Origin: an uncultured Aminicenantes bacterium
GTDB lineage: Bacteria > Acidobacteriota > Aminicenantia > UBA2199
DNA: 64,000 bases
Assembly: GCA_965195285.1 (NCBI GenBank)
Contig: CBDAFS010000039.1
Coordinates: 17,022 to 81,021, forward strand
Reading direction: 5' to 3'
The notes under the pieces are model-generated. The model made no database searches. It was not told where the DNA came from and saw only the letters and a list, made by a program, of their open reading frames with translations. The translations under genes and the position numbers were made by a program. Below are positions 1 to 30,352 of this stretch, one piece after another. How positions within the stretch are numbered: the stretch's first letter is position 1; the number at the start of each line of letters is the position of its first letter.

Positions 1-72
1 ATTCTGAGAAGTATAAATAGGGGGGAAAAACCAACACATCCAAAGCTGGAGGCTGGCCAGGACCGACTCGAT

Positions 73-3000
73 TCAGTTTGATTTATCCAGATTGGCCAGC
101 TGATTTTTTAGTGTTTTTCTCAGTTGGTTTTCCTCAACCGAACGACCGTATAGCTTGGCAATTTTCTGGTAGATAATCAAGGCTTCAGGGGATTTTTTCA
201 ATCTCATCAGCAATCCTGCTTTTTCCCACAGGCATGGAATATAGTTTGGATTGAACTCAAGACAATCCTCAACTTCTTCCATAGCTTCCCGATATCTCTG
301 GTTCCGTATCAAATATTGAATGTATTCGGTTTGAAAAAACTGGCGGTGATAACAGGTCACCCAGTATGAAAGCTGGGTTTTCAACTTCATCAGGTTCTTA
401 AAATTACTATTTGCATTATCAAATTGGCCTTCGCTTTCATAAATCAATGCCCTTAAATGCAAAAAATATTTATAAGGTATATAAAAATTCTTTTCAGACA
501 GATGGTAACGCTGTTTGATTTCCCGCAACCATTCCAGCTCCTGCTGGGTGGCTTTCAATTTGTTAAGTTTCAGTAAAACCATCCCTCTCAACCAGTGGGC
601 TTCCGCCACGGTATAATCATTGATATCTTTAGAATTATAGATGAGCAGCGATTGGTCCAGAATGGACAGTGCTTCATCCATATTCTTCTCCAAAAATTGA
701 ATATAGGCCTGTTTGACCATGGATCGGGCCCTCTCCTTTTTTGAATTGGTAAGCTGGTTATAATACAGTAAAACCGGTTTCACTTTCTGGTACTCAGCCT
801 TCAGGATATAAATGTCAGCCAGAGTCAGATTTGACCAGGGTACACTTTGACTGTTTTTTGACAGGGCGGCCAGTTTCATGGCCTCGGCAGAGGTCAGATC
901 ACCCGAATAAAAATACCCATCTCCGAGAGAGTCGAAAGAATTGGCGGATTGATCCAGGTTGCGGTAATCCTCAAATCGTTGAATGGCCTGGTTGTGATTT
1001 CCCAGATAAGAATAGCAATACCCCAAATGATTGATGGCCTTAGAATTCTTTCGGTTGATATCCAGAACCTGCTGATAAAAACCAATGGCCTTTTCCGCAT
1101 CTCCCCGGTGAAAGTACGCTTCTCCGAGTTCAAAAAAAGCATCCGGAAGAAATGGAAAATCTTCCTTCAACTTTTCCAGATTTTCGATTTCATCATTAAA
1201 ATTAAATTCCAGTCGGGATTTGAGAGCCTGTATTTTTAATCGGAAACTACCGGTGAGGTTATCCTTCAAACACACAACCTCCCGGATTAACTGTCTGGCC
1301 TCTTCCCGCCTACCCTTGAAATAGAAAATATCAGCCAGTAAATATTTGGCTACAGGGAGATCAATCGACTTTTTCAGGTGATATTCAGCCTGGCTGAATC
1401 GAAACTTACGGTAATATTTAAGTCCCTGGTAAAAACTTGAAAATCGTTTCCAATCACTGCCGAACAGGTCAGAGATTTTTTTTATTCTCACCTCATCCGC
1501 CTGTTTATTACCGAAAACACTTAAATACACACGTTTTGCCAGTGTGTCCACCTGACTGGAAAGCAATATATCCTTATTTTGTATGGGAATAGTGATGGGT
1601 AATTGCTTTTTCCCCCGGACCACCGGGATCAGTACGGCATCAATGTTGTAGAAGTCGTTGAACTGGGTAACCGTTCCCTTTAATTCAAACAATACCTTGA
1701 ATTTTTTCATGAGTTTTATCACCGTATTCCGGGAATCAAGTGTATTTTTCGCCATTTCCTGCCCGGGGATGTTTTCGGGCCCCCCCCCCACCTGATCCGA
1801 AACCAATACTCCCTTGGCACTAAAAGCGGAATCCGTTTCCATATCAAGACCGGAAGCAATATCCTCATTTATGGTTTTAAATTCCCGGAACTGATTTAAA
1901 GACTGGTACAGTAAGTAATTCAATTTTTCGAAGAGTTGTTTATCACTGCTTTGGTTTTTAAAATCATGTAAATAAATATAAAATTTTTCACCGGGGTCCG
2001 GAATCATCATTTTATCATCCCGGTGGCCAGTCAATATCAATAACAGGGCGATAATCAGGACCAGGGCCAGAGGTATTGATACCATTTTCATGATCCGGTG
2101 TTTGGTGTATATCAGTGGTTCGGTATGGGCCTTTATTTTTTTGATTCGGTAGACGATATCTCCCAGTCCTTCCTGGTCAGAAGTCCTCTGTATTCCTTTC
2201 ATCAATTTATTCTGATCCTGGGTATCAATAATTTCTGTTTTGAAATCAATATTCTTACTCTCAGCCTGCAGAATATAATCTTCCCGTATTTGCTCAAGAT
2301 TTTCTTTGATTGATTTAAAATCCGTTAACCGGTCTCCGGGTTTCTTCTCCAGGGCACATCTGACCATCTGCTTCAGTTGATCAGGTATATCGCGGAAAAA
2401 CTGTACGTCCCTGTTGATGACATTGTACAGTGTAGATATATGATCTTTATCCTGAAAGGGATTAATCCCTTCCAGCATTTCATACACCACCACCCCGAAA
2501 GAGAATATGTCGCTGGAGGGTTCCAGATGCTCTCCTCTGGCTTGCTCCGGTGACATGTAGCAAACGGTTCCCATTATAATTCCCTTTTCAGTGAAGTGGG
2601 TCGAATCGATCATATCCTTCTTTTTCATGATTGATTCATCCCTGAATTTCGCCAAACCAAAATCCAGAACCTTAACCGAACCCTTTTGATTAACCATTAA
2701 ATTGGCCGGTTTTATATCCCGATGAATAATCTGCTTGGAATGGGCTTCAATCATGCCTTCGCATATCTGGATAGTAATATCCAGGATTTTATTGATGCTT
2801 AACTTCTTCAGGCTTATGATCTGGTCAAGGGTCACACCATCAACAAATTGCATGACAATATAGTTGTTATTCTCTTCCTCATATATCTCGTATATGGTGC
2901 ATATATTCGGGTGTTCAAGCTGCGAGGCGGTTTGAGCCTCTCTCAGAAAACGGGCCTTTGAATAAAAATCATTGAGGGTTTTCTCCGAAATACATTTGAT

Positions 3001-3255
3001 GGCCACTTCCCTTTTTAACTTCTGGTCCCGGGCATGATAGATGGTTCCCATCCCTCCCCGTCCCAGACTTTTGATGATTTTGAAGCGGCGGTTCAGAAGT
3101 AAATCATCAAAGCTCAATTCCGCAGAATCCGATTCTCCTGTAGAGGACGTTCCGGATATTTGGATGGTGACATCCTCAGCCTGCATCTGAACACCACAGG
3201 ATTTACAGAACCGAGCATCAAGAGGATTATCACTGCCACAGGTCTTACATTGCAT
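73..3255 (-). CDS. Serine/threonine protein kinase with N-terminal zinc-ribbon, a single TM segment and an extracytoplasmic TPR-repeat domain
   Basis: ORF 73..3324(-). Hanks kinase motifs HRDIKPANLM, DFGLAK, MSPE. CxxC...CxxC ribbon (MQCKTCGS..CKSCG). Hydrophobic stretch (SIPLALVLIIALLLILTG). C-terminal half is rich in TPR-like repeats. The start is probably the internal Met at 3255, because the 3324 start is only 50 bp from the divergent gene. Confidence 0.8.
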   Translation of the reverse strand: MQCKTCGSDNPLDARFCKSCGVQMQAEDVTIQISGTSSTGESDSAELSFDDLLLNRRFKIIKSLGRGGMGTIYHARDQKLKREVAIKCISEKTLNDFYSKARFLREAQTASQLEHPNICTIYEIYEEENNNYIVMQFVDGVTLDQIISLKKLSINKILDITIQICEGMIEAHSKQIIHRDIKPANLMVNQKGSVKVLDFGLAKFRDESIMKKKDMIDSTHFTEKGIIMGTVCYMSPEQARGEHLEPSSDIFSFGVVVYEMLEGINPFQDKDHISTLYNVINRDVQFFRDIPDQLKQMVRCALEKKPGDRLTDFKSIKENLEQIREDYILQAESKNIDFKTEIIDTQDQNKLMKGIQRTSDQEGLGDIVYRIKKIKAHTEPLIYTKHRIMKMVSIPLALVLIIALLLILTGHRDDKMMIPDPGEKFYIYLHDFKNQSSDKQLFEKLNYLLYQSLNQFREFKTINEDIASGLDMETDSAFSAKGVLVSDQVGGGPENIPGQEMAKNTLDSRNTVIKLMKKFKVLFELKGTVTQFNDFYNIDAVLIPVVRGKKQLPITIPIQNKDILLSSQVDTLAKRVYLSVFGNKQADEVRIKKISDLFGSDWKRFSSFYQGLKYYRKFRFSQAEYHLKKSIDLPVAKYLLADIFYFKGRREEARQLIREVVCLKDNLTGSFRLKIQALKSRLEFNFNDEIENLEKLKEDFPFLPDAFFELGEAYFHRGDAEKAIGFYQQVLDINRKNSKAINHLGYCYSYLGNHNQAIQRFEDYRNLDQSANSFDSLGDGYFYSGDLTSAEAMKLAALSKNSQSVPWSNLTLADIYILKAEYQKVKPVLLYYNQLTNSKKERARSMVKQAYIQFLEKNMDEALSILDQSLLIYNSKDINDYTVAEAHWLRGMVLLKLNKLKATQQELEWLREIKQRYHLSEKNFYIPYKYFLHLRALIYESEGQFDNANSNFKNLMKLKTQLSYWVTCYHRQFFQTEYIQYLIRNQRYREAMEEVEDCLEFNPNYIPCLWEKAGLLMRLKKSPEALIIYQKIAKLYGRSVEENQLRKTLKNQLANLDKSN
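1780..1789. repeat. C10/G10 homopolymer tract inside the kinase CDS (encodes VGGGP); possible slipped-strand phase-variation site
   Basis: Direct read: gggc + ccccccccc at 1780-1789. In frame on the minus strand as gtg ggg ggg ggg ccc. Confidence 0.6.
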
Positions 3256-3373
3256 CGTCACTATTTTAGCAAATAGCCCGATTTTTATCAATTCCAAAGC
3301 TATCGGTTTCCATTCCTGAAACAATCAAAAACCCGGCTTTGCCTATACCGGGCCAAATTGGTATAATCACATC

Positions 3374-4519
3374 ATGGCTTCCTATGCCAATTACTCCCTA
3401 AAGGCCCGGGCAATCGCCCGGTTGATTGATTCCATAACCTGGCCTTTTGGAATATTCAGAAAAAATCAAAAACCTGAAAAAATTGAAAAAATTCTTCTGG
3501 TCAGACCCGATCACCTGGGAGATCTGCTGATGAATACCGATGCCATGTATTCATTAAAGAAAACATTCCCGCATTCCCAGATATTCCTGGTCACACCGGA
3601 TTGGAATCAGCCCATTGCCCAAAAGCTGGAATTCATCGATGAAATCATCCCCATTAACCTGAAATGGTATTGCTTTAACCGGGAACCACATACCCACTTA
3701 ATTGAATTGATAAAAAAAATATGGGTATTGAGGAAAATAAAAATTGATCTTTTTATCGATTTTAGGGGAGATTTTCGTATTGCCCTACTGTTCGGATTTT
3801 TCTCCGGTTCGAAAATCAGGCGTGGTTTCAGTAACCTGGGTGGCCGCTATCTATTAAACAACCATACCGTTTTTAACCGCAAAATCCATTTTTTTCAGCA
3901 GAATTTTGAACTGATCGCTCCTTTCACAGAGAGTAGATATCACTATAAAATTCCTTTGGATAAATCCGATGAACTCAAGGCAGAAGAACTCCTTTTGCGT
4001 TATGGGTTGAAACCCGGTTCTTTTGTGATAATACATCCGACGGTTGCCGGATACTGGAACTTAAAAAGATGGCCGCTTAACCATTTTGTTGAAGTGGCCC
4101 AGCATATAATTTTCAATCACCACCTTCAGATTATTATTTGCTCGGGACCTGCCGAGAGAGAGACCGGAAATTCACTTGCCCGGTCAGTTCCAGAATCAAT
4201 TAACCTGTCGGGCCGTTTAACCCTGATTGAATTCATAGCCTTATTGAGGCGAGCTTTTTTTCTAATCTCCAATGATTCGGCGCCCATGCATCTGGCCGTT
4301 CAGATCCTTACTCCCCTGATTGCGGTTTTTGGACCCACCAATTACCGGAGATCAGGCCCCTATCCACTCAATGAACGCCAGATCGCCGTAGAAGGTGATA
4401 TCGGATTGAAAAGGCCCCTGTTCGGAGTCCAATCCCTCGGGAAAGGATATTTTCCAAAACCTGAAACAGTAATAGGCAAAATTGATGAATTGATAAAATA
4501 TTTGGAAAATCAAAAGTGA
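3374..4519 (+). CDS. Glycosyltransferase family 9 (LPS heptosyltransferase-like)
   Basis: N-terminal motif ILLVRPDHLGDLLM is typical of ADP-heptose:LPS heptosyltransferases (RfaF/WaaC family). GT-B architecture. 381 aa. Confidence 0.75.
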   Translation: MASYANYSLKARAIARLIDSITWPFGIFRKNQKPEKIEKILLVRPDHLGDLLMNTDAMYSLKKTFPHSQIFLVTPDWNQPIAQKLEFIDEIIPINLKWYCFNREPHTHLIELIKKIWVLRKIKIDLFIDFRGDFRIALLFGFFSGSKIRRGFSNLGGRYLLNNHTVFNRKIHFFQQNFELIAPFTESRYHYKIPLDKSDELKAEELLLRYGLKPGSFVIIHPTVAGYWNLKRWPLNHFVEVAQHIIFNHHLQIIICSGPAERETGNSLARSVPESINLSGRLTLIEFIALLRRAFFLISNDSAPMHLAVQILTPLIAVFGPTNYRRSGPYPLNERQIAVEGDIGLKRPLFGVQSLGKGYFPKPETVIGKIDELIKYLENQK

Positions 4520-4608
4520 ATTCAACTTAGCCAAAACGTCCAGACCAGCTTTAAATCAGGGTGTTTTCCAGAGTCAGGAATCAGGGATGAGAATACAAAT
4601 TCCATCCG

Positions 4609-6207
4609 CTAGGAGGGGTTTTGATTAAGGATATAAATCTTCAGGCCATTTATGTCAATGGTCTCGGCTATTATTCTGAAAATGGTTTCTTTGACTCTCA
4701 GTAATTTTCCCACATACTTTTCCGGGGTTGAGGTGATCAAATAAATCCGATCATAGCCCGTCAAATCAATATTTGGTTCTGTTCTCTTAATGAGCTTTAC
4801 TGCTACTTTCCCATGTATAAAGGTTGATACCATAAAATGCTTTCTTTCCCTTTGGACTATCAGGAATTCATATTTTTCCAAATAATGGGGAATGACCCGG
4901 TAATCGGCAATGATGTTACTCAAGATAAATAAGGTCCGGCCCTCTTTTTTTATTTTATTAATTTCTGAAAAATAATATTCATAAATCTTTCTGATTGACA
5001 CCGAGTGGGAATGGGTAGTCTCGAATATCCGGATAACCTGAGAAAGTACATATTCTCCGGTGCGCTTATCCTGACCGCTGATTTTGATTTTGGCCTTGAA
5101 ATAATCCAGCTGTAGCGGGATAAAAAACAACAAGAGATTTACCATGACAATCCATTTGAACCTTGTTCTGATCCGCTGCCATTGAAAAAATCCGATGACC
5201 AGAATAACCATGCCGGTAAAGATTTCAAGTAAATACCCATTCTTTGGAAAGTACAGCAGCAATACAAAACCTAAATGTGGAAGTATCCACATGATTAAAA
5301 ACCAGGTATTGTTTTTTTTCAGGATTTTCAAAAATGAAATCTTTCCCGATCTGACCATCATTATCAATGTAAGGGGTATTATCTGGATGACCAAGGCCAG
5401 GATGACATTTTTGCAATTTTTTATGACCGTTAGCAGCAGGTTCTTGATTCCACCTAAATAACCACTGAGGATATTGTCCCTGATTATATAATCGGTAATC
5501 AAGGCATCCAGTGCATCCGGTGCCCTGGATAAGTAGAACACCCATTCTTTCAAAGCAAAATACCACAGGACATCAACAACTATAAACAGGGCAATAAAGG
5601 TCCATCTTTTCCAACCGGTTTTTATGCGAAAAAACATCACAAAGATGGCTAAAGGTAGCAAAACCAGCGGAATATTGGTTTTGATCAATCCTCCCAGCAA
5701 TATGACCAGAACCATATATGGATTCCATTTTTGCTGGAACACTTTATTCAGGCAATATACAATGCCGATAACGGCAGCCCCCTCGGTTAAATAAATGGTG
5801 GTGACTTGGGAGTGAAAGAAAACAATGGGAACGGTAAGAAAAAAGGCATACAGACCGGGGCTGAATTCTTTCTTGAGCAAATCTTTGGCCAGCAGCGTGG
5901 AAAACAGGGCAAAAATAAAATATGAAATCAGTACAATAGCCAGAAAGCCATAATAGCTGTTTTGAAAAATCCCGGCCAACATTTTCAAGATAAATACGAA
6001 CCCGATGTAACCGGGTGGATGGGGCTGGTTCAGAAACAGGTTAAACTCATCAATGGCCTTGACATAATTGACAGAATCCCATTCGTATAAATAAGGAAAC
6101 CTCAATATCACTGAAGCTGTCATGAAAATCATGGTCATCAAAAACAGACCCGGAAATCTCCATGCTGAATGACCACATTGATTTATTTTTAGTTGACTTG
6201 TCATCAC
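4609..6207 (-). CDS. Polytopic membrane protein, GT-C-fold glycosyltransferase-like (family uncertain)
   Basis: 532 aa with >10 hydrophobic segments. N-terminal loop has YEWDSVNY..PHPPGY. Sits in a glycosyltransferase operon. Its stop overlaps the start of the upstream GT4 gene. Confidence 0.45.
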   Translation of the reverse strand: MMTSQLKINQCGHSAWRFPGLFLMTMIFMTASVILRFPYLYEWDSVNYVKAIDEFNLFLNQPHPPGYIGFVFILKMLAGIFQNSYYGFLAIVLISYFIFALFSTLLAKDLLKKEFSPGLYAFFLTVPIVFFHSQVTTIYLTEGAAVIGIVYCLNKVFQQKWNPYMVLVILLGGLIKTNIPLVLLPLAIFVMFFRIKTGWKRWTFIALFIVVDVLWYFALKEWVFYLSRAPDALDALITDYIIRDNILSGYLGGIKNLLLTVIKNCKNVILALVIQIIPLTLIMMVRSGKISFLKILKKNNTWFLIMWILPHLGFVLLLYFPKNGYLLEIFTGMVILVIGFFQWQRIRTRFKWIVMVNLLLFFIPLQLDYFKAKIKISGQDKRTGEYVLSQVIRIFETTHSHSVSIRKIYEYYFSEINKIKKEGRTLFILSNIIADYRVIPHYLEKYEFLIVQRERKHFMVSTFIHGKVAVKLIKRTEPNIDLTGYDRIYLITSTPEKYVGKLLRVKETIFRIIAETIDINGLKIYILNQNPS

Positions 6208-7280
6208 TTTTTCTTCAGGATCTCCTTATAAATTGCCTGCATTTTTTCTCTGAATTTTCCCAGTGTATAGGCTTCGAGAATCCGTTTTCCCGACTCCAGC
6301 AACCTTTTTTCCAGTTCCGTATCTTCAATCAATTCATTGACTTTCATGGCAAATGCTTCCGGATCCAGTGGGTCATCGACATAAAGCGCCGATTCCCCCA
6401 TTACCTCAGGGATCGAACTTCTCCTGGATACCACGGACAGGGTTCCACAGCGCAGTGCTTCCAGTGGAGGGTAACCAAAACCTTCATACAGGCTTGGAAA
6501 GGCAAACACCTTGGCATTCTGATATAGATAGCTGAGTTCATTGTCCGAAACATAGCCACAAAAATGAACCCGGTGGTAATCACATTCATTCAAAAAAGTT
6601 AAAAGCTCCCTTTTACTGGAATCCTCTATTTGCCCGGCAATGACCAGGGGCAGCTTGTGAAAGCGAATCGACTGTACAACGGTCTTCAGATTCTTGATTT
6701 TGTCAATACCTCCGGTGTAAAACAAATATTCCGAGGGAAGTTCCATATCCGGTTTTTGAGCAAAGGCGGGATTGATATGCTTATCAAGCGCATTGTGAAT
6801 GACCCGTATCCGACCCTCAAGTTGAGGTAAATAATTGAGTAGATCATTGGCAGTATGACGGGAAACAGTTATCACTACATCGGCATTCCGGGCACTTTTA
6901 ATAATTTTCTTAAAAATATACCGGTGCCTGGCACTGGAAAAATCAGGGAAGATTAGCGGGGTCAGGTCATGAACCGTAAGGACATAAAAGATATTTTTCG
7001 GTTTTTTAGGCAATGCAAAAGCGGGTGAATGATAAACACGTATGGCCTTTTCAACCAACAGGTTTTTCAGCATCACATGATCGGTAAAGGTAATCAATCG
7101 TCTGGGGGAATTCAAAAATAATTTTCTTTCCAGTTCTGGCCAGAAATTCTTTTCATTGAAAAAAAGAAAATGGAATGCCCGTTCATTTTTAAAAATATCG
7201 ATCAATTGTCTAGTGTAGCGCCCGATTCCCCGGAATGCTGAATAGGTCTGTAAGGAGCGTCCGTCGATTAAGATCTTCAT
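6204..7280 (-). CDS. Glycosyltransferase family 4 (GT-B, retaining)
   Basis: C-terminal motif EGFGYPPLEALRCGTLSVVS is a GT4 (E-x7-E-like) signature. 358 aa. Confidence 0.8.
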   Translation of the reverse strand: MKILIDGRSLQTYSAFRGIGRYTRQLIDIFKNERAFHFLFFNEKNFWPELERKLFLNSPRRLITFTDHVMLKNLLVEKAIRVYHSPAFALPKKPKNIFYVLTVHDLTPLIFPDFSSARHRYIFKKIIKSARNADVVITVSRHTANDLLNYLPQLEGRIRVIHNALDKHINPAFAQKPDMELPSEYLFYTGGIDKIKNLKTVVQSIRFHKLPLVIAGQIEDSSKRELLTFLNECDYHRVHFCGYVSDNELSYLYQNAKVFAFPSLYEGFGYPPLEALRCGTLSVVSRRSSIPEVMGESALYVDDPLDPEAFAMKVNELIEDTELEKRLLESGKRILEAYTLGKFREKMQAIYKEILKKK

Positions 7281-8803
7281 CAGGCTATTCTCAGCAATGT
7301 TTTCAGTGCTTGCAATTGCTGACCCCTTAATTCATACTTTTCAAAGGATACCGAAATATAACGCCTGGTTTCAACCCGGGTGAAATAGCGTGATAAAATA
7401 TTCAAAAACCTTCGATCCTGGATCGGCTGTTCCTCCCAATCCAGTATCAGCAGGTTCAATGATGATCCGGTTTGTTTTTTTACACAATTTTTCAGATTCA
7501 AAAAGGTCGGAGACAATATCTTTACGTCACTTTTCAATAAATCAAAATAACACTGCGAATAGCGAATTTCTTCAGAAAGAACCGCAATTGAATCTTCTGA
7601 CATTCCTTCAGCTACTTGCCTGATTTGAGTTACGGCTTCCCGCCACTGCTGTTTGGTTTTGCGACCATAATAATCATGCTGAAAATAAATACCGGACACC
7701 GATACCATGAATACCGCCACAATGATAATCATTCTCAAAAAGCCCGACCGGATCATGGCAATGGCCGCGGCGATCAACACCAAAACCCCAGCCAGGATAT
7801 AGATTCCGTGCTTGAATGACAGCATGGGAACCATAAGCAGGGATCTCAGATAGGGAACAAATAATGAGAGGAAAATCCAACTGATGACAATTGGAATAGA
7901 AAACAGCAGTGATTTGAATTCACTACTCGTACAAGTCACTTGCCTCCCTTTCAGTATACATTTGACCACCAAAAACAGTAGTAAAACGGAAAACAGGATG
8001 TTCAGAAGAATTTCATTACCAAAAAAAGCCCTAAAAAGATTTAGGAAAAAAAGCGGATTGGGCGGGGCTTTTATCCAGTGATCGGTTTTCTGCAACATTT
8101 TTAAAACAAAACAGATCATGGGAACATATAAAAGGATCATCATCAGGCCGGCCATCAGGTGATGTCGGGTTGCTCTCAGGTTAAACAGTTTTTTTTGAAA
8201 GCCATAATAAAAACCTAAATAAATAAACTGCGACAGCAGAATAAACAATCCATAGTAATGTGTATACAACATCAAAACAGTATACAGAACATAGAAAAGC
8301 CTGTTTCTTTTCCCCGGCTCTTTCAAATCTTTGATAAAGAACAGAAAGGAGAGGGTAGTGAACAGAAAAAGCAATATATAGGGCCTGACTTCCTGAGAGT
8401 AATACAGGTGATAAAAGTTGACCGAAACCAGCAAACCGGCAATAAGTCCGGCCTGTCGGTTGAATATTTCCTTTCCCAAGAGAACCACAGGGTAAACACT
8501 GAGAATGCCAATCACTGCAGTAAAAAGCCGAGGGCTAAATTCATTGTAGCCAAAGAGTTTCATCCAGCTGTGCAGAAGTAAAAGAAACAAAGGGGGATGC
8601 GGGTCCCAGCGGGAAACCCCCACTATTCTGAATATGGAGAAATCGGGCGAACTGTGATAAATGGAAAACAGTTCATCTCCCCACAGACTTTGAAAATTCA
8701 ATCCCTTTAATCGTAAAAAAGCGGCGATAACCAGGATACCGAAAAACCAGACATGCTCAATTCTAAAATGTTTCTTCCAATCAGAACCGGATTCGAGCAT
8801 CAT
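7280..8803 (-). CDS. GT-C-fold membrane glycosyltransferase (ArnT/PMT-like, GT39/83-type)
   Basis: 507 aa, multi-TM. First extracytoplasmic loop has SLWGDELFS, a DE-containing motif typical of ArnT/PMT-family transferases. Confidence 0.6.
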   Translation of the reverse strand: MMLESGSDWKKHFRIEHVWFFGILVIAAFLRLKGLNFQSLWGDELFSIYHSSPDFSIFRIVGVSRWDPHPPLFLLLLHSWMKLFGYNEFSPRLFTAVIGILSVYPVVLLGKEIFNRQAGLIAGLLVSVNFYHLYYSQEVRPYILLFLFTTLSFLFFIKDLKEPGKRNRLFYVLYTVLMLYTHYYGLFILLSQFIYLGFYYGFQKKLFNLRATRHHLMAGLMMILLYVPMICFVLKMLQKTDHWIKAPPNPLFFLNLFRAFFGNEILLNILFSVLLLFLVVKCILKGRQVTCTSSEFKSLLFSIPIVISWIFLSLFVPYLRSLLMVPMLSFKHGIYILAGVLVLIAAAIAMIRSGFLRMIIIVAVFMVSVSGIYFQHDYYGRKTKQQWREAVTQIRQVAEGMSEDSIAVLSEEIRYSQCYFDLLKSDVKILSPTFLNLKNCVKKQTGSSLNLLILDWEEQPIQDRRFLNILSRYFTRVETRRYISVSFEKYELRGQQLQALKTLLRIA

Positions 8804-8846
8804 GCCCCCTCACCTATCTCTGAATCAGCTATATTCATCATCACAC

Positions 8847-9749
8847 TCAGGATTCCGCTCTTCGAGCAAACAAGTGTTCAACCAAACGCCAGAAGCGTCC
8901 CGGGATAGCCCTGGCAATTTTCAAGGCCTGTACATCATTCAGATTCCACCAGGATTCACCGGCCACTCCCACCTGGCTGTTGACCACCACCTCACATCCT
9001 AAAAATCTGGCTTCAACCGGCATGCGGCCGGCCGGTTCAAGGGCTTTCGGTAAAAAAACAAATTGTGAAGCGCCTTCAAATGTATTTAAAACCTGGTCGG
9101 GTTTCATATCTTTTATGATGATGGGATCGATTCCTTTTCCCTGGCAGTATTTCATTGCCGGTTTAAACCCCTTGATCGGACCTCTGGAATAGGCAATACA
9201 GGTGCCTTTCTTCTGGCGAGAGGAAGTCGATTGAAAACGTTTTACCCGTTTAAAATATGATTTATCCATTGCCGAACCACCCAAAACCAATTCCCTGGAA
9301 CAGGAAAAAAATGGATTTCGGTGAAAAACTGCCCTCTGGCGGTGGGTCAAAAAGATGACCCCGAGTGCAGTGCCATACAATGACCGGAGATAAAAATGGG
9401 GACAAATACACCAATGCCGGAAACGATGTGCAGGTTCCCAGGCTTCGGGAAAATTTCCCCGAAACCGGCAGATCCTCACATCATGCTCAAACAGAATATG
9501 TCGGCCAAAATGACAAATATCTTTAATCTGCTGTCGGGATGCCAGGGACAGATTGCCCAGTATATGCACATCAAAATCGTCCAAATGTTTCCATTTCAGA
9601 TCTTTTATGCGCACACCCTCCAACTTCCATGGACAGGTTTCGATAAGTGCTGCATCCGTCATCTCGGCACCGCCGGGGTACAGACTTCTCAAATCCCGGG
9701 GTTCATCACAAAACTTGTCCACCACAAATAAAATTCTAGGTTCAGACAT
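8847..9749 (-). CDS. Hypothetical protein in glycan operon (weak GT-B-like C-terminal motif)
   Basis: 300-aa ORF with coding-like composition. The segment FVFLPKALEPAGRMPVEARFLGCEVVV resembles a GT-B donor-binding region. No firm family assignment. Confidence 0.4.
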   Translation of the reverse strand: MSEPRILFVVDKFCDEPRDLRSLYPGGAEMTDAALIETCPWKLEGVRIKDLKWKHLDDFDVHILGNLSLASRQQIKDICHFGRHILFEHDVRICRFRGNFPEAWEPAHRFRHWCICPHFYLRSLYGTALGVIFLTHRQRAVFHRNPFFSCSRELVLGGSAMDKSYFKRVKRFQSTSSRQKKGTCIAYSRGPIKGFKPAMKYCQGKGIDPIIIKDMKPDQVLNTFEGASQFVFLPKALEPAGRMPVEARFLGCEVVVNSQVGVAGESWWNLNDVQALKIARAIPGRFWRLVEHLFARRAES

Positions 9750-9795
9750 GATGCATTTCCGTATCCGTATTTTCAGTCATAAGCCGGCTTCTGAT

Positions 9796-11055
9796 TCACT
9801 TAACCCAGAGTGTATTTTCAAAAACACCCTCCAATTGTTGATTCAGAATGTGTTGATTGAATTCCTTTTCCACAAAGGCCCGGCCATTATGTCCCATTTT
9901 CGTCCAGATCCGGTGGTGGCTGATCAGATACTCTATCCTTTCGGACAGGGCACTGACATCCTTTTCAGGAATCAGATAACCTGACTCCCCATCCAGCACT
10001 CCTTCGGGTATGCCGCTGTGAAGCGTGGAAATAACCGGCATTCCCATGGCCTGGGCTTCCATCAGTACTACCGGAATCCCCTCCTGATCACCACTTTCTG
10101 AGGTGATGCTGGGAAGGACAAAGATATGCGCTTGCAAGTACAATTCCAGGATTTCACTCTGATTGCACTCACCCAAAAAGTCTACCTGGGAATCAATTCC
10201 CAGCTGGCGGACCAGGTTTTCCAGCTTTTTTTTCAGCGGACCGTTTCCCGCAATAATATATTCTACATTTTGTGTTTTATGCAGGACTTTCGCTATGGCC
10301 CGAATGCTATATTCATGGCCTTTTTTTTCCACCAGCCGCCCAACGGTCAAGAGTTTTATTTTTTCTCCCGGTAATATCTTTTTCTGCTGAAATTCAAATC
10401 GGTTTACATCAATACCCATATGGTGAACCGTAATTCTATCCTCCTGGCAGCCCATTTGCATCAATTTACGTTTCCAGTGTTCACTGATAGGAAGGCATCG
10501 ATCGCAGATCCGGAATAAATCACGATAAATACCAGGACCGGAAATATGAACATATTCGGATAAATCATAACCGTGAAAAGTAGTTAAAAGCCGGACTCCG
10601 CCCCCCCCCTTCTTCAAACAGGCTCCGATCATCCCATTCTGACCGAAATGACAATGCAGTATATCAAAATTTTTTTTCAATACCGGAATATTATAAAAGA
10701 GCAATTTCAGGGAAAGGGCATCTTTTCCGTATCTGAAAATATTTAGGCAGCGTAATATTCTTAACGGGTTTTTAGAAAAATGAGATAAAAATAGAATAAA
10801 TCCCTTCAGGATCCGAAACAATTTGTTTGAGGGGATCCGGGGAAAATAAGTTGTTTTTTGTATCAGATTGTATTTGCCCACATCCGGATGTATTTTTTTT
10901 TCTCCTGGATTTTCCAAAGCAACAATTTCCACTTCATGGCCCGAAGAAATGAGAGCGGTTATTTGGTTTAATATGAAGGTTTCGGACAGACAGGGAAACC
11001 CGCCTACAATAAATGCGATCTTCATGGGGAATGATTTACTTTTTAAAAGTTTCAA
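9796..11055 (-). CDS. Glycosyltransferase family 4
   Basis: Motif GDQEGIPVVLMEAQAMGMPVISTLHSGIPE (GT4 signature). 419 aa. Contains a G9 tract encoding KKGGGG. Confidence 0.8.
   Translation of the reverse strand: MKLLKSKSFPMKIAFIVGGFPCLSETFILNQITALISSGHEVEIVALENPGEKKIHPDVGKYNLIQKTTYFPRIPSNKLFRILKGFILFLSHFSKNPLRILRCLNIFRYGKDALSLKLLFYNIPVLKKNFDILHCHFGQNGMIGACLKKGGGGVRLLTTFHGYDLSEYVHISGPGIYRDLFRICDRCLPISEHWKRKLMQMGCQEDRITVHHMGIDVNRFEFQQKKILPGEKIKLLTVGRLVEKKGHEYSIRAIAKVLHKTQNVEYIIAGNGPLKKKLENLVRQLGIDSQVDFLGECNQSEILELYLQAHIFVLPSITSESGDQEGIPVVLMEAQAMGMPVISTLHSGIPEGVLDGESGYLIPEKDVSALSERIEYLISHHRIWTKMGHNGRAFVEKEFNQHILNQQLEGVFENTLWVK
10601..10609. repeat. C9/G9 homopolymer tract inside the GT4 glycosyltransferase CDS; candidate phase-variation site
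   Basis: Direct read: ccg + ccccccccc + t at 10601-10609. Minus-strand codons are aag ggg ggg ggc. Confidence 0.6.
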
Positions 11056-12973
11056 AAATCAGTTGACGATCCTTAATGAACCTCGAATGCCAGAGCTCCA
11101 AATTAACAATTCTCCACAAAAACTCGGGGTTCTTCCGGGCCAGTACCGGGTAATCTCGGAGAATAGCCTGGTTATTCAGCCAGAGGGGATCCGCATCATT
11201 AATAATGCCGAATATGGTTTTCTTATTATCAATCAACCATTTTCCCAGAGGAAAGGGAAAGCCTCTCTTTCTTCTTCTCCACACAATGGACCGGGGTACA
11301 ATATCCTCGAAGGATTTGCGAAGAAACCACTTCAACCAGCCATTGCGGAAGAAATAACCGGGCGGAAGCGAAAAGACATAATCCACCACCCGGTAATCAA
11401 GAAAAGGATTCCTGACTTCAATGGGAATCCCCATATCACTTTTGTCACTTGAACTCATCCAGTAATACATCTTCAGGTCTTTCATGTTCTGGATATACAA
11501 TTGATTAATATCCTTGGGATATTCTAGAAACGGGATATACTCTTTTTCTGATTTAATATAGCGATCAAACTCCACTGGCTCTCTTCGATAATTCAAGATT
11601 TTACGGGCCAACAGCCTGGTTAAAGGGAAAAAACTGAGCGGGTATTTTTCCTTATAAAATAGAATGTTTTTGAAAAATGCAGAATAACTGCCCTTCTTCA
11701 ACAAGGCCCTCAGGGTGGGAATGGCATATTCCGTATATCCGGCAAAAACCTCATCGCCTCCTGCACCGCCAATGATCACCTTGTATCCCTGTTCGCGCAT
11801 TTTTTTCCTCAACAACTGACCGACCAAAAGAACAGGTCCATGAAAGGGTTCTTCAAGCAGGTATATGAAGTCATTCAGATATTCCCACAAATTCTCCTCT
11901 TCAAAATTAATCAAATGGTGGTTCACCTGTGGATACTGCTTAACCAGTTTCACGGCAAAATCTGATTCATCCACTTTCTTATTCTCATATTTGACTGAAA
12001 AAGCCGCAAAAGGAGCTGGATTTAGAGACGCTCGCAGGGCAACCAGGGAAGATGAATCCAATCCTCCGCTGAGCTCAAAAGCAACCGGAACATCTGCCCG
12101 CAGCCTTTCGGTCAAGGCAACTTTCATCAAATCTTTAAACTGCTCGGTTGATTGTTTAAAATCCACCTCGCTTTCATCCATTCTGTTATCCGGAAGTTCC
12201 CAATAATGACGGGAAGTCAATCTCCCGTCCGGCGTTACTTTCACTAAGGCGGCATTATCCATCATTAGAATTTCTCTCCAGAATGTGGAATGTCCGAAGT
12301 CCTTGATCCCGGAGATCAGATAGTTGTAAACGACTTCATCATCCAGATGGAGCTCAGATTTGTCCAGAATCGGTAACAGGGATTTTATTTCTGAAGCCCA
12401 CAATATCCTCTGACGGGAATGATAGACATAAAGTGGTTTTTTACCAATCCGGTCCCGGGAAAGTATCAGCAGGTTTTGATTCAAATCAAACAGGGAAAGG
12501 GCCCAGAATCCGCTGAGTTTCGAAAAACATTTCTCCCCCCAGTATTGATACGCTTCCAGAATAACTTCCGTATCCGACCTGGTCCTAAAGGTAATACCCT
12601 TTTGTTCCAATTCCTGCCGGAGTTCTATGTAATTAAAAATCTCACCGTTGAATACCAGGCAGGTTGTTTTCTGTCTGTTCCACATGGGTTGGTGACCGGA
12701 TGGCGAAATATCAATGATGGAGAACCGTTGGTGGGCCATGGCCAACTGATGAGAAAAATTTAAATTCACTTGGCCAACCGGGGCATACTTCTGCTTGATT
12801 TCCGGATGTGAGTGATTGGCAGACAGGTCCAGGCTATGCCCTTTGGTGGTATCAATCAACACATAGCCTTCATCATCCGGTCCCCTGTGGGCAATTTCCC
12901 TCGACATGCCCGCAATCATATCAGTACTCTTGATCTGATGTCGATAATTCCAGTATCCGGCAATTCCACACAT
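11036..12973 (-). CDS. Asparagine synthetase (glutamine-hydrolysing)-like amidotransferase
   Basis: N-terminal MCGIAGYW (class-II glutamine amidotransferase Cys2 nucleophile). PP-loop SGGLDSS. 645 aa. WbpS-like AsnB homologues are common in polysaccharide loci. Confidence 0.8.
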   Translation of the reverse strand: MCGIAGYWNYRHQIKSTDMIAGMSREIAHRGPDDEGYVLIDTTKGHSLDLSANHSHPEIKQKYAPVGQVNLNFSHQLAMAHQRFSIIDISPSGHQPMWNRQKTTCLVFNGEIFNYIELRQELEQKGITFRTRSDTEVILEAYQYWGEKCFSKLSGFWALSLFDLNQNLLILSRDRIGKKPLYVYHSRQRILWASEIKSLLPILDKSELHLDDEVVYNYLISGIKDFGHSTFWREILMMDNAALVKVTPDGRLTSRHYWELPDNRMDESEVDFKQSTEQFKDLMKVALTERLRADVPVAFELSGGLDSSSLVALRASLNPAPFAAFSVKYENKKVDESDFAVKLVKQYPQVNHHLINFEEENLWEYLNDFIYLLEEPFHGPVLLVGQLLRKKMREQGYKVIIGGAGGDEVFAGYTEYAIPTLRALLKKGSYSAFFKNILFYKEKYPLSFFPLTRLLARKILNYRREPVEFDRYIKSEKEYIPFLEYPKDINQLYIQNMKDLKMYYWMSSSDKSDMGIPIEVRNPFLDYRVVDYVFSLPPGYFFRNGWLKWFLRKSFEDIVPRSIVWRRRKRGFPFPLGKWLIDNKKTIFGIINDADPLWLNNQAILRDYPVLARKNPEFLWRIVNLELWHSRFIKDRQLIFETFKK

Positions 12974-13015
12974 GATTAATTGTCTAATTAAATAAGCTAT
13001 TCATCATTATCAAAA

Positions 13016-13966
13016 CTATATATCAATATTAAATAACTTCAACCACCTTCTTATGTATGAAGCGGTAAGCATTTTGGGCAATTTAGTCTTCTTAAACCGT
13101 GACGGAATAGGATTTGCATATAATTCCAATGATTCCCTTTTGATTATCTGCCTGATTTGTCTTAACAATTCCCGTGTTGTTCCTTTCTGAATTTCCTGAA
13201 AATAGAGAAAAGTAAGGTTTGCGCACATCATCTGATATCCGGAATAGTTCATTTTTTCAATAATGCAATTGTCACCTAATTCACAATTTAATTTCTTGTA
13301 GTAATCTATTGCACTGGCTATCATAAGAATACGATCCGCATTCATGCTTCTGCCATGAATCCGGTAAAAACCACCAATAAAAGGGAAATATTTAAAAGTC
13401 ACACCGGTTGCTGCTAAAATACTTAGCATGTACCTGTCTTCATTGGCTTTTAATTCAGCTTTAAATAAACCAAAATGTTTGAAAATATTTCTATTAAATA
13501 GTAATGAATGAATTGGAGTCGGATATGGTAACCAAAAATTATAATAATAAGGGAAAATATCATCAATTTTTCCAATATTCATAGACACAATCCTTTTAGA
13601 ATCATCAAATAGCCAATCAACCTCGCAATAGGTTATATCTGCATTCTGTTTTAGGGAAAATTCTATTTGCCTTGACAGTTTGTTTTTTTGTAAAAGATCA
13701 TCTGCATCAAGAAATTGAATATACTCACCTTTAGCAGCTTTAATTCCAGTATTTCTGGCTTCAGCAAGTCCGCAATTTTTCTGATTTATCAAACGAATCC
13801 TTTTGATGAACTTCTGGATAACAGGAAATGGATCATCAGTTGAACCGTCATTTACAACAATAATTTCAATATTGGAATAGGTTTGGTCTAAAACACTCTT
13901 TATTGCTTCTCCTATATATTTTCTCTGATTATACAGGGGAATAATAACACTTACTTTTGGTTTCAT
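13016..13966 (-). CDS. Glycosyltransferase family 2
   Basis: VSVIIPLYNQRKYIGEAIKSVLDQTY..IEIIVVNDGSTDD and a DAD-like motif (LDADD). GT-A fold. AT-rich gene. Confidence 0.8.
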   Translation of the reverse strand: MKPKVSVIIPLYNQRKYIGEAIKSVLDQTYSNIEIIVVNDGSTDDPFPVIQKFIKRIRLINQKNCGLAEARNTGIKAAKGEYIQFLDADDLLQKNKLSRQIEFSLKQNADITYCEVDWLFDDSKRIVSMNIGKIDDIFPYYYNFWLPYPTPIHSLLFNRNIFKHFGLFKAELKANEDRYMLSILAATGVTFKYFPFIGGFYRIHGRSMNADRILMIASAIDYYKKLNCELGDNCIIEKMNYSGYQMMCANLTFLYFQEIQKGTTRELLRQIRQIIKRESLELYANPIPSRFKKTKLPKMLTASYIRRWLKLFNIDI

Positions 13967-14057
13967 TTATGATATATCAATATCACTCAACAATTTCATT
14001 CATTCCTTAAATTAATAGACAATAACCAGAAATCATTTTAATTTTCGAGTAGTCTTA

Positions 14058-15117
14058 TCATTTATTGAGAGAAAATTTTGATCTTTTTAAAGCCTTCACA
14101 ATTTTATCAGTAAAAACTTTTAAAATATATTTTATTAGATTAATTTTTAATTCGATTGGCAATAAAAAAAAATCGGTTATCGATTTTTTAAACAGATTAT
14201 TCCTGAAATATAAATAAATATATTTATCTCGTTTATACTTTATGATATTTTTTATTTTTTTTTCTTTTAAACCAATTTTTTTTATCAAATTCGATTCTTT
14301 AGATAAGAGATTCTTATTAAATGTATCCAATAGAGTTAATATGTTTTTGAATATGTTAAAATTTTTTATATTCACATTGTCTAATTTCATATCCTTCAGA
14401 ACAGAATATTCATTGTTGGTGATTTTTTTGCCAATTATATCCTCAATTTTTTGTTTTGAAATTCTATTGGCTGAATTTATCTGCTGACATAAATATGTTG
14501 ACGACATATTAGATTTTGTTTCTCTCCAACTCACCAGCACTTTATTGATTTGAACTAATTTTGTTATTTTTGATAATCTTGTCCATAATTCATAATCCTG
14601 TGCTTTATCCATCCGCTCATCATACCCTCCGGAATTTATTACAATATCTTTACTGAAAAAAACCGTAGAATGTGCTATGCAATTCCCAAAATATAAAATA
14701 TAATACACTTCTTCCGGCGAAAATATTTTATCAAACCGTCCAACTCTTTTTCCGGCCACATCAATCACATCCGCCAAACTGAAAACAAATCCAATATCCT
14801 TATTGTTTTCTAAAAAATCATATTGCAATTTAAGTCGATCTTTCACAGAAATATCATCTGCATCCATTCGAACAATGTATTCACCTTTTGCCATCATTAA
14901 CCCTGTGTTTAATGATTTGGTTAAACCAATATTTCTCTCATTATTAATTATTTTAATTCTTAAGTCGCTGTAACTCTGCAATATTTCCGCAGTACTATCC
15001 GTAGAACCATCATTAATGATTATAAATTCGAAGTCTGTAAAAGTTTGCTCCAGGATACTATTAATGGCTTCTTTGAGAAAGCTCTCACAATTATAAACTG
15101 GCATTAAAACAGTAACT

Positions 15118-15146
<29 letters not shown>
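14058..15146 (-). CDS. Glycosyltransferase family 2
   Basis: VTVLMPVYNCESFLKEAINSILEQTFTDFEFIIINDGSTD and MDADD. 362 aa. Confidence 0.8.
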
Positions 15147-16985
<1,839 letters not shown>

Positions 16986-16986
<1 letters not shown>

Positions 16987-18833
16987 TAACTTTCCTTTTG
17001 TATAAGTTTTTTATCTTTTTTTCTTTTCTCCAAATACCATTCAAAAATTGGAGTATCAACTTGATTTATACTTCTATTAATATCACTATCACCACAAACA
17101 CCGTTAGGATACATACACTTACCTTTTTTTATATCTTCAAACAACTTTTGGGGAATATTTTCCCATATTTTATCAAAATTCTCTTTCTTTACATTACCCA
17201 TCTTCCGATCTTCACTTAATTTAAAATTACAGGGATAAACATCCCCGTTGGGAGCTAAATGGAAAAAAGTCTTACATGCATGGCATGGCATAATGCGTTT
17301 ATTTATTATTGAATCATAAAGATAACATGACTTAATATTTCCTTTATACTTTAAGAAATCTCCATGAACATCTTTAGTAAATTTAATTTTGTCAATACCA
17401 GTATAGCGTTCTAAAATAGGTATTAATTCAGAATTATTTTGAAAAACTAAATCTTCTTCTGTTGTACTAAAACGATCATTCATTACAGTCCAACATATAT
17501 GAACACCTAATCCTTTACTTTTGGCAAAATCTTGGACCCAATCGAAATACTCAACATTATCTCTAAGAAATGTAAAGCTAAAATCAACATTTGAAGAAAA
17601 TTCTTTCAATAATTCTGCCGTCCTTACAGTATTTTCAAAACTGCCATTTATACCCCTACTTTTATCATGTATTTTTTTAGGACCATTTAAACTTACACCA
17701 ATCAATGCCCATTTTAGATTGGGAGCAAGTGACTTTATTTTTTTAAAAAAATTATATGTCCTATCAGGATCATAGCCATTGGTCGTAATGCTAAACTTTG
17801 CTTTCTTTAATTTTTTATGAAGCGCTATCACTATTTCAGGAAAATCATTCCTCAATATTGGTTCTCCACCACTAAGAATCACTTCATTAACATCTTTTAA
17901 TAATTTATTATTTGTCAATTTATCTATATCATCAGAAGTAAGCTCCTCTTTTGGTAAGGTTTTATTCTTCCATATATTACAAGAAACGCATTTAAAATTA
18001 CACCGCCATGTCATTGTGTACCTAATACAAGTTATTGCGTCAAGCTTACTATCCTTAATTCTATCTTTTTGAAAAATTCTTTTTAATAACCTTTTTAATT
18101 TCTTCATTTTTGATACTATATTTTTCTGATTTTTTTTATTACCAATATCCTTTTCAAGAACACCCATCAAAATTGTGTGCCTGTTGTTCAGACAATCCTT
18201 TATCAGCACCTTTTCTCTCCAGTAAAAACCATATTTATTCATTAATTTTGAAATGCTAATAACATTAACTTTGTAGGGGTGCGCACTATCAGCATTTCTT
18301 TTCACTACCTTCCAAGAGGTGCCTGTATCCCCAATGTTTATCATAAACCACAATTCTCCGTCAGTTTTAAGAATATTAAAAATGGTATTGGTGGCAAGTT
18401 CGATATCTGAAACATGATCCAATACATTCCAACAGATAACAACATCAGCTTTAATATCAGTTTTATAGGTTTCTATTTCACTACAAATATATTTAACATT
18501 ATCATTAGAAAGATCCCACATTTTTTTATATTCATCTATAAGTGGATCTATTCCGATTGCAGTTGTATTGTTCAAATGGGAAATTACTGCGGTAGGTCCA
18601 CAACCAACCTCAATCACAACCTTATTTTTTAGGTCACTAATACTGCGATTTATATACATAAGACAGTATTTTCTGAAATAAATATTTGCAATTCTCCATT
18701 CATCAGGAGAGAATCCCTTCCATTCATTTTCCCTTATATTTGACCAAAAATCTAATTCTTCGATTTGTTTGGGTTTTAAACTACTTACATCCAATTCATC
18801 TCTAATTGTTTTTTGTTGCGATTTCTTCAGCAT
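16986..18833 (-). CDS. Methyltransferase / radical SAM (SPASM-type) fusion protein
   Basis: N-terminal VVIEVGCGPTAVISHL (SAM MTase fold). Then RCNFKCVSCNIW (CxxxCxxC radical-SAM cluster) and ILSGGEPIL. C-terminal Cys-rich SPASM-like segments (CHACKTFFHLAPNGDVYPCNF; KCMYPNGVCGD). 615 aa. Confidence 0.7.
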
Positions 18834-18868
18834 ACTTACCTCTTATTATTTTTTTGCTATCACAATAA

Positions 18869-20059: not shown

Positions 20060-20060
20060 C

Positions 20061-20909
20061 TTAAATTCTCTCTGCTACCCTGGTTTCGGTCAGGTGAAAA
20101 ACAAATAAGCAAAAAATAAAAACAAAAAAAGAAATAATAACGGAAACCCAAAAACCTGGCCATTCCTTCGAGTATCCGGTTAATATAAGATCCCTTGGCA
20201 CTGAAACAAGATAAAATAATGGATTATATTTTGTTATTTGAGCCAGAATCCCGGTGGTTGGCTTTGGATATAAGATGGGTGTTAAAAACATAAAAAACGT
20301 CATTAATATTGAAATAATATTTCCAATATCTCTCAAAATACCATTCAAAATTGATAGAATAAAACCAAGGCCAAGGGTTAAGATAAAGACTGGGAGTATA
20401 AGAATCGGAAATAAACATATGGCTGCATGTGGGGAATAACCATAAAATAAAAAAAGAATTCCTGCCAGAACAAATTGAATAAGGAAAGATACCAGTGATT
20501 GACCTATTGAAGCAATTACCAGTGATTTTTTTGAAAAGTTTATTTTTACAATCATCGATCCGGCCTTCACCAATGAATTTGAACCTGCAATAAGTCCTGA
20601 GGCAAACACCTGCCATATAGCAATTCCTAACACCGCAAAAATAGGATAGGGTACATCAATTTTCCCAAGGTTGAATATACCAGACCGATTAAGCATAATA
20701 AAAGTTCCTACACTAATAAGAGGAATTACAAAAGCCCATAAAACCCCGATAAATGATTGTTTATATATGCCCAGGAAATCTCTTTTAAAAAGTTGATAGA
20801 TTAACCAACGGCTTAGTTTTATTTCAGAAACAATCTCTTTAAAAATACAAAAATACCCATTCTTTAAAATATTGTCAGGTTCATATGTCTTTAATTTATT
20901 ATTATTCAT
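20061..20909 (-). CDS. wzm: ABC-2 type polysaccharide exporter permease (Wzm-like)
   Basis: 282 aa, 6 predicted TM segments. Immediately upstream of the Wzt NBD gene. Confidence 0.75.
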   Translation of the reverse strand: MNNNKLKTYEPDNILKNGYFCIFKEIVSEIKLSRWLIYQLFKRDFLGIYKQSFIGVLWAFVIPLISVGTFIMLNRSGIFNLGKIDVPYPIFAVLGIAIWQVFASGLIAGSNSLVKAGSMIVKINFSKKSLVIASIGQSLVSFLIQFVLAGILFLFYGYSPHAAICLFPILILPVFILTLGLGFILSILNGILRDIGNIISILMTFFMFLTPILYPKPTTGILAQITKYNPLFYLVSVPRDLILTGYSKEWPGFWVSVIISFFVFIFCLFVFHLTETRVAERI

Positions 20910-30207: not shown

Positions 30208-30352
30208 TTTTAAATAACTGACATGAATCCAGGGTAAAAATTAAAAAAACAGATATAGTGCAAAAATAAATTATTTTTATTTTTAAGAAAAACATATCAC
30301 TCGGATTTATCATATAATAAATAATATTTTATTACAAAAGGACTTTGATACA

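Follow-up and report, generated by a model that had tools for sequence, protein, structure and literature searches.

Long Poly-G Tracts in a Ser/Thr Kinase and a GT4 Glycosyltransferase of an Uncultured Aminicenantes Bacterium: Probably Young, Incidental Homopolymers

Introduction

Are two long poly-G tracts in the genes of an uncultured Aminicenantes bacterium on/off switches, or are they incidental homopolymers? Both tracts lie in a 64,000-nucleotide stretch of contig CBDAFS010000039.1, which is the whole of the DNA analyzed and is referred to as the window. One is a run of ten G (G10) in the gene for a Hanks-type Ser/Thr protein kinase, and the other is a run of nine G (G9) in the gene for a GT4-family glycosyltransferase. 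The original prediction, made from the window alone, proposed them as candidate contingency (phase-variable) loci. Both belong to a known kind of feature, the homopolymeric tract in coding sequence. The names carried by homologues place the sequence in Candidatus Aminicenantes. The tracts are probably young, incidental, and slippage-prone homopolymers, built by edge substitutions (or compensated +1/−1 indels) in unconstrained loops, and nothing in the present data shows that they act as on/off switches.

Position of the Tracts and Consequences of Slippage

The kinase tract appears as C10 on the plus strand at positions 1780-1789, which is G10 on the sense strand of the minus-strand kinase gene. 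It forms part of GTG GGG GGG GGG CCC, which encodes VGGGP at codons 512-516 of the 1083-codon open reading frame (ORF) 73..3324(−), in the linker of the kinase. The GT4 tract appears as C9 on the plus strand at 10601-10609, which is G9 on the sense strand of the minus-strand GT4 gene. It lies in AAG AAG GGG GGG GGC GGA, which encodes KKGGGG at residues 137-142 of 409. Both runs are intragenic and in frame. The coordinates and peptides of the original prediction match these exactly.

Gain or loss of one base at either tract truncates the product in silico, as had been predicted. At G9, the GT4 is shortened to 146 or 153 amino acids (aa), which removes its whole C-terminal donor-binding domain. 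At G10, with the TTG start of the ORF as residue 1, the kinase product becomes 529 or 534 aa long, and the shifted frame reaches a stop 13-19 codons past the tract. The shortened kinase retains the kinase domain and the transmembrane (TM) helix and loses the tetratricopeptide repeat (TPR) domain. Neither tract is close to the 5′ end of its gene, the positions being 34% and 47% of gene length.

The prerequisites of a slipped-strand switch are all present: a length in the switching range, an intragenic position, truncation by a ±1 change, and, for the GT4, a place within a surface-glycan cluster. Contingency loci contain a simple sequence repeat (SSR) of hypermutable length (G/C 7-8 or more) in an ORF or promoter, as G10 and G9 are. 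A one-unit change in such a repeat leads to an early stop, which is the outcome here in silico and would presumably be reversible. A G-quadruplex reading was dropped without computation, as one G run cannot provide four tracts.

Tract Alleles in Related Populations

Contigs related to the window were found in JGI, ENA, NCBI, and Logan assemblies through exact-protein look-ups, and they are 90-98% identical to it around the tracts. Eight GT4 alleles and six kinase alleles from independent metagenomes were compared. The GT4 tract is G6 in L007, L002, L013, L008, and L005/L006, where AAG AAG GGG GGT GCC (or GCT) encodes KKGGAG. L003 carries G3AG5 (AAG AAG GGA GGG GGC), which encodes KKGGGG with an interrupted codon. 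G9 is found in the window and in L001/L010 (AAG AAG GGG GGG GGC, KKGGGG), and L004 carries G10 (AAG AGG GGG GGG GGC, KRGGGG). The kinase tract is G4 in L008 (GTT AAG GGG AAA TCC), G6 in L012 (GTT GGG GGG AAA TCC) and L011 (GTT GGG GGG AAA CCC), G8 in L003 and L004 (GTG GGG GGG GAA CCC), and G10 in the window and L010 (GTG GGG GGG GGG CCC).

All eight GT4 alleles and all six kinase alleles are of equal length and in frame, and they differ by substitutions alone. No tract-length difference, no indel of any kind, and no OFF-frame allele occurs among them. Over longer distances, L004 (11.5 kb, 97.5% identical) and L007 (13 kb, 96.8% identical) align to the window with zero gaps. Members of the protein clusters for which DNA is lacking add KKAGAG to the GT4 peptides and VGGKP and VGGKS to the kinase peptides, and none is truncated at the tract. 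Exact-sequence look-up of eleven predicted frameshift products in 15 billion proteins found none of them, which is a weak negative, as only near-identical strains could match.

Contingency loci are further recognized by length polymorphism, with ON and OFF lengths between strains, and by conservation of the repeat across a clade. The alleles display no such polymorphism. The repeat is not conserved: the GT4 has G6 followed by TGCC in five relatives and G3AG5 in L003, and the kinase has G4, G6, or G8. L003 encodes KKGGGG as GGA GGG GGC, which is the one case of the same Gly run with interrupted codons in a relative, a finding that the original prediction had named as speaking against it. Phase variation itself is not borne out by these alleles, which offer neither length polymorphism, nor an OFF allele, nor conservation of the homopolymer.

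A null allele of the same GT4 gene is present in L013 (ENA ERZ23498458 scaffold_10242, 711-1940), which comes from a population ~93% identical to the window. Codon 265 is changed from AAA to TAA without an indel, and the gene is split into ORFs of 264 aa and 126 aa. The equivalent window position is ~10231-10233, in an A8 run. The 264-aa GT4 fragment P0128, which ends at this A8 run, was considered as a homopolymer frameshift and ruled out by the DNA, in which the change is nonsense and no indel is present. P0131, a 419-aa version of the GT4, has no record in the contig index.

L007, a Logan contig (SRR29278622), breaks off at the equivalent of window position 1835, which is 45 nt upstream of the kinase tract and where single-nucleotide polymorphisms (SNPs) between strains occur. 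Tract heterogeneity that broke the assembly graph was considered as the cause and is not a secure attribution: the break is too distant from the tract for k = 31, and the strain SNPs lie at the break. With the 532-aa gene that separates the two tracts as query, no relatives were found in the metagenome contig collection, which seems to lack this lineage, and a DNA pattern with gaps across the GT4 tract gave no match in the same collection. A scan of genome contigs returned only a 3-kb contig of the metagenome-assembled genome CSMAG_1370 (L009), which carries neither tract.

Origin of the Long Runs

In the more distant relatives, the kinase run is followed by AAA and the GT4 run by T-GCC, the bases that are replaced in the long runs. 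The kinase G8 alleles still have AA, and GG is found in the window only. Because more distant relatives share the replaced flanking bases, the long runs are the derived state, and young. The A of L003 is a later synonymous interruption, and the added G of L004 is a later extension.

Both tract regions are substitution hot spots. The 15 nt at the kinase tract contain 7 variable sites, which ranks them in the top 0.5% of such intervals in the gene, and the 15 nt at the GT4 tract contain 5, which ranks them in the top 10%. Every change toward the window in the kinase series turns a run-flanking base into G. Substitutions that separate the window from L004 have a balanced spectrum, with 128 AT>GC and 136 GC>AT changes, which argues for local run growth and not for a general GC drive. 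Run edges also vary between strains elsewhere, as seen for G6 versus G5 at positions 20-25 and for two of eight A/T runs of at least 8.

It is proposed that each run grew from a shorter G run via single-base edge substitutions, in a lineage-specific manner and without a long-maintained switch. The kinase path would lead from GTT AAG GGG AAA to GTT GGG GGG AAA, then to GTG GGG GGG GAA, and finally to GTG GGG GGG GGG. The GT4 path would lead from AAG GGG GGT GCC to AAG GGG GGG GGC. The proteins would tolerate almost any residue at the run, which in the kinase probably lies in an extracytoplasmic linker rich in indels and in the GT4 in a turn that caps a helix. Edge substitutions that copy the base of a run are a product of transient-misalignment (“dislocation”) mutagenesis, and the edges may have grown by this route; compensated +1/−1 indels would leave the same pattern and are indistinguishable from it in the data. 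At 9-10 G, the run is likely to be more slippage-prone than ordinary sequence, making it a fragile site that would occasionally produce null GT4 or TPR-less kinase alleles. Such fragility would be a by-product, with no sign of selection for it.

Rarity and Distribution of Homopolymers

The window has a G+C content of 37.6%, and GGG makes up 18% of its Gly codons. It contains three G/C runs of at least 7, which are C10, C9, and C7 at 36282-36288. Runs of 4, 5, 6, and 7 number 164, 41, 8, and 1, a drop of ~4-5-fold per base, followed by the runs of 9 and 10. Order-0 simulation predicts 0.03 runs of at least 9 per window. Synonymous-codon shuffling within each of the 55 ORFs, which preserves the proteins and per-gene codon usage, predicts 0.091 against the two seen (P(2 or more) = 0.003), a ~20-fold excess in the window. 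These two models were relied upon instead of Markov simulations of order 1-5, which were trained on sequence that includes the tracts and thus inflate the expectation. G10 and G9 exceed chance even allowing for their Gly-rich peptides. The original prediction called such tracts rare by chance in a moderate-GC genome, of which the rarity stands and the word moderate does not, since 37.6% is low.

Long homopolymers are not special to surface genes in this lineage. The Sua5/YciO/YrdC gene (Sua5/TsaC, t6A synthesis), located downstream of the kinase and past window position 1, carries G8 in L011 (10362-10369) and G7 in L012 (9738-9744), encoding the conserved motif YGLGG(D/N). Because this is a housekeeping gene, G runs are not confined to surface genes. 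The PrmC gene at 35716-36564(+) carries A9 at 36158-36166, A10 at 36246-36255 (FPKKKS), and C7 at 36282-36288 in the NPPY catalytic motif, and it would likewise count as phase-variable by the PhasomeIt cut-offs (A/T at least 10, G/C at least 7). Further A/T runs of 9 occur in PriA, CoaBC, Psd, and other genes. Across the 64 kb and ~30 kb of relatives, there are two G/C runs of at least 9, both within the glycan cluster or adjoining it, together with the G8 of Sua5 and the C7 and A10 of PrmC. General scarcity fits the long runs being transient, as poly-G/C runs are under-represented in prokaryotic genes (PMC2831843).

The GT4 gene also contains A9 at 10893-10901, near its 5′ end (~codons 42-45, GEKKI), and A8 at 10226-10233 (LKKKL). 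The A8 is broken by a substitution in L004 and L007. The adjacent GT2 gene has two runs of 9, at 14164-14172 and 14255-14263. Di- to penta-nucleotide SSRs are absent from the window.

Alternative Explanations

Several observations weigh against regarding the tracts as incidental. All alleles are consensus assemblies, in which minority tract lengths cannot show, and tracts of at least 8 form a small sample of five consensus observations, all ON. Two runs of at least 9 per 64 kb amount to a Campylobacter-like density, and both fall within or alongside the surface-glycan cluster, the setting in which contingency loci are classically found. That seven Gly codons in the two runs are all GGG (three of them in the kinase and two in the GT4 allele of the window, with the shared G8/G10 alleles in addition) is improbable given the codon usage (P = 0.003). 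The PhasomeIt cut-off for G/C tracts is at least 7 (PMC6321876), and both tract genes would be flagged by criteria of this type (G/C at least 7 inside an ORF). A conserved core phasome exists across a Campylobacter species, and many phase-variable genes are found in single isolates even in this genus (PMC6321876). Because such single-isolate genes occur, non-conservation of the repeat lowers the contingency claim without excluding it.

The tracts could then be true contingency loci that are newly evolved, with slippage at G9/G10 reversibly toggling the GT4, for example for phage escape, and alternating the kinase between full-length and TPR-less forms under second-order selection for mutability. 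Such loci are unlikely here. Their lengths are the modal switching lengths of C. jejuni, where G8-G11 is measured to be hypermutable (PMC3401435), and the runs are intragenic, yield early stops upon ±1 changes, sit in a surface-glycan setting, and outnumber chance expectation (2 per 64 kb, P = 0.003). They have lengthened stepwise in the lineage, with the GT4 reaching G10 in L004, and the natural null allele of L013 (codon 265) suggests that loss of the enzyme is tolerated or sometimes favored. However, the eight GT4 and six kinase alleles include no length polymorphism and no OFF allele, the eleven predicted OFF products are not on record, and the homopolymer is not conserved at 97-98% identity and is interrupted in one relative. 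The sole null allele found is a point nonsense change and not slippage, similar runs occur in essential housekeeping genes, and the tracts lie far from the 5′ end. As candidate contingency loci, the tracts thus retain the sequence prerequisites and lack length polymorphism, OFF alleles, and repeat conservation. It is quite unlikely that a member of the free-living Aminicenantes has newly evolved poly-G contingency loci that combine a GT4 toggle with removal of the TPR sensor domain of the kinase.

Selection at the protein level for flexible poly-Gly linkers or turns, with the DNA homopolymer as a side effect, is very unlikely. Both runs do encode Gly in a turn or linker, and Gly141 of the GT4 is nearly invariant. 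Close relatives nevertheless function with GGAG, AGAG, VGGEP, VGGKS, or VKGKS at the same positions, and L003 keeps the poly-Gly peptide with mixed codons. Poly-Gly also places no demand on GGG, which supplies 18% of Gly codons, and at the 5′ edge of the kinase run a synonymous change, GTT>GTG, nevertheless extends the run. Transcriptional slippage or programmed ribosomal frameshifting could yield a truncated kinase isoform that lacks the TPR sensor, and the stop 13-19 codons past the tract in the shifted frame would define a product consisting of kinase domain and TM helix. This reading is extremely improbable: the zero frame is the main one, relatives whose kinase is otherwise 92-98% identical around the tract do not have the run, and no stimulatory element was seen, though none was sought. 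The motifs well known for slippage are runs of A or T.

A sequencing or assembly artefact, in which the true tract lengths or flanks differ (e.g., through Illumina errors after G runs), was raised by the original prediction as homopolymer sequencing noise. Homopolymers are error-prone, and the window-specific changes (GAA>GGG and GGT GCC>GGG GGC) turn run-adjacent bases into G, as phasing errors do. On the other hand, over window positions 1-15137, which include both tracts, a separate Logan assembly from ERR12308021 (L010) matches at 100.000% identity, although it may share the same reads. Long ORFs are preserved by both tracts, and a coherent intermediate series comes from different JGI metagenomes, with the kinase G8 in L003 and L004 and the G9-type and G10 forms of the GT4 in L003 and L004, respectively. 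Noise is hence scarcely credible as the source of the tracts, and young, incidental homopolymers are the preferred reading.

The Kinase and Its Linker

The kinase gene (73..3297(−)) encodes a Ser/Thr protein kinase with an N-terminal zinc ribbon, a Pkinase domain, a TM helix, a hypervariable linker, and C-terminal TPRs. The called product is 1074 aa and is 100% identical to P0134, with alternative starts at 3324 (TTG) and 3255 (ATG). Pfam matches include Pkinase (2.8e-53), multiple TPR families, and DZR, and the hydrophobic stretch MVSIPLALVLIIALLLILTG corresponds to a single TM helix. From its sequence, ORF 73..3324(−) is classified as a Hanks-type Ser/Thr kinase, with the Pkinase domain, single TM helix, and C-terminal TPRs that define the class. 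Its TPR domain is predicted to be extracytoplasmic.

G10 sits ~75 residues past the single TM helix. In an alignment of 16 kinase homologues, the tract falls in an indel-rich stretch of 30-40 residues that is absent from most of them. The description of this region as an ectodomain linker in the original prediction is fair.

The GT4 Glycosyltransferase and the Surface-Glycan Cluster

The tract-bearing GT4 (9796..11025(−), 409 aa) is classed as a WcaL-like retaining glycosyltransferase with a GT-B fold, as assigned by Pfam, NCBIfam, and an AlphaFold model. Its Pfam matches are Glycos_transf_1 (1e-42) and Glyco_transf_4 (5e-19), and its PDB matches among GT4 enzymes include PimB′ (3oka, 5e-20). 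The NCBIfam WcaL model aligns end to end at 285 bits. Because this score is under the equivalog cut-off of 537.6, the product is classified on sequence grounds as WcaL-like and not as a WcaL equivalog.

The AlphaFold model has a mean pLDDT of 89.1 and contains two Rossmann domains, with a helix at 129-140, a turn, and a strand at 143-150. In this model, GGGG at 139-142 is predicted to form the helix C-cap and turn in the N-terminal Rossmann domain. Among 28 GT4 homologues, Gly141 alone is nearly invariant, and the adjacent positions read GAG, ISG, or ING.

The GT4 gene belongs to a surface-glycan biosynthesis cluster (3374..20909) of the lipopolysaccharide (LPS)/exopolysaccharide (EPS) type, defined by domain searches and gene order and adjoined by the kinase gene. 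The first part of the cluster comprises a GT9 heptosyltransferase-like gene, an unknown 532-aa protein, a second GT4, a PMT_2 membrane glycosyltransferase, and an unknown 300-aa protein. The rest comprises the tract-bearing GT4, an AsnB-type amidotransferase, two GT2 genes, a frameshifted epimerase, a methyltransferase-GT2, a radical-SAM/SPASM methyltransferase, and an ABC-2 exporter pair. L003, L004, and L007 share the order of genes that runs from the kinase as far as the AsnB-type amidotransferase or the GT2 genes next to it (window position 1 to ~12-15 kb). L008 largely keeps the kinase-to-AsnB order but without the PMT_2 gene.

The frameshifted gene encodes an NAD-dependent epimerase/dehydratase (15118-16088(−)). 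Its N-terminal part, which starts at 16088, ends in DNIKPF*, and the remainder lies in another frame. The break is at CCTTTTTAAG, ~15915-15925, and one added T would mend the frame. The split gene is either a pseudogene or an assembly error. Window positions 15137-19404 form a strain-variable cassette: the match to L003 ends at 15135 and restarts at 19404, with other genes in between (sulfatase, B12/radical-SAM). In the window, this segment holds the broken epimerase, the methyltransferase-GT2 fusion, and the methyltransferase/radical-SAM/SPASM protein, and the Logan contig ends at 15137.

Other Features of the Window

The 240 nt that separate the divergent genes 58717-59841(−) and 60082-61314(+) contain runs of A10 (59889-59898) and A9 (59998-60006), which are a possible candidate for a promoter-spacer homopolymer. 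A GH5 cellulase-family lipoprotein gene at 29210-30295(−), with a signal peptide ending in FLIFTLDSC, has two in-frame TAG codons in ~360 otherwise intact codons. These lie at 30154-30152 (GAA TAG GGA) and at 30043-30041 (TTT TTT TAG GGA), the latter just past a T8 run. Because TAG terminates 9 of 55 ORFs, recoding of TAG is ruled out and the gene is regarded as a pseudogene.

Comparison with Known Systems and Significance

The poly-G loci of C. jejuni, which include the LOS (lipooligosaccharide) glycosyltransferase cj1139/wlaN and capsule and flagellar-glycosylation genes, resemble the tracts described here. They are intragenic runs of 9-10 G in a low-GC genome, where ±1 changes cause premature stops, and they include a glycosyltransferase in a surface-glycan cluster with a length at the modal G9 (PMC3401435). 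In Campylobacter, G9 is the modal tract, and switching rates rise with length, G8-G11 being hypermutable in C. jejuni (PMC3401435). The C. jejuni tracts, however, are length-variable both among strains and within them. In the present case, all alleles share one length, no OFF state is found, and the run is not conserved at 97-98% identity.

The poly-G tracts of the LOS glycosyltransferase genes lgtA, lgtC, and lgtG and the lic tetranucleotides of Neisseria and Haemophilus, together with the poly-G switch of Klebsiella rmpA, also place a repeat in a glycan-biosynthesis or regulator gene, where a frameshift would alter the surface. In meningococci, mononucleotide tracts have switching rates of 1e-4 to 1e-5 even when mismatch repair is present (PMC3401435). 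In contrast to the present case, an uncultured sediment lineage represented by consensus sequences alone, these switches are experimentally shown and host-associated. The tracts most resemble incidental coding homopolymers, or proto-microsatellites, which arise by substitution and lengthen by transient-misalignment mutagenesis and are exemplified by micro-evolving homopolymeric tracts in a survey of prokaryotes. The likeness holds in three respects: edge substitutions copy the base of the run, the codons are unconstrained, and comparable runs occur in housekeeping genes. Unlike in such homopolymers, two runs of at least 9 within 9 kb are unusual (P = 0.003).

At present, the two tracts are instructive mainly as a matter of method. 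An extended G run within a surface gene does not suffice to call phase variation, however unusual it is statistically, and a few related metagenome contigs can tell whether a run is conserved, length-variable, or merely young. A full-text search found no literature that joins “Aminicenantes” with “phase variation”. If the tracts do switch, they would give one of the earliest signs of phase variation driven by homopolymers in a sediment candidate phylum. SSR phase variation, known mainly from host-associated bacteria, would then extend to an environmental anaerobe, presumably under phage pressure, and the allele series from G4 through G6 and G8 to G10 would be a rare snapshot of the birth of a contingency locus by edge substitutions.

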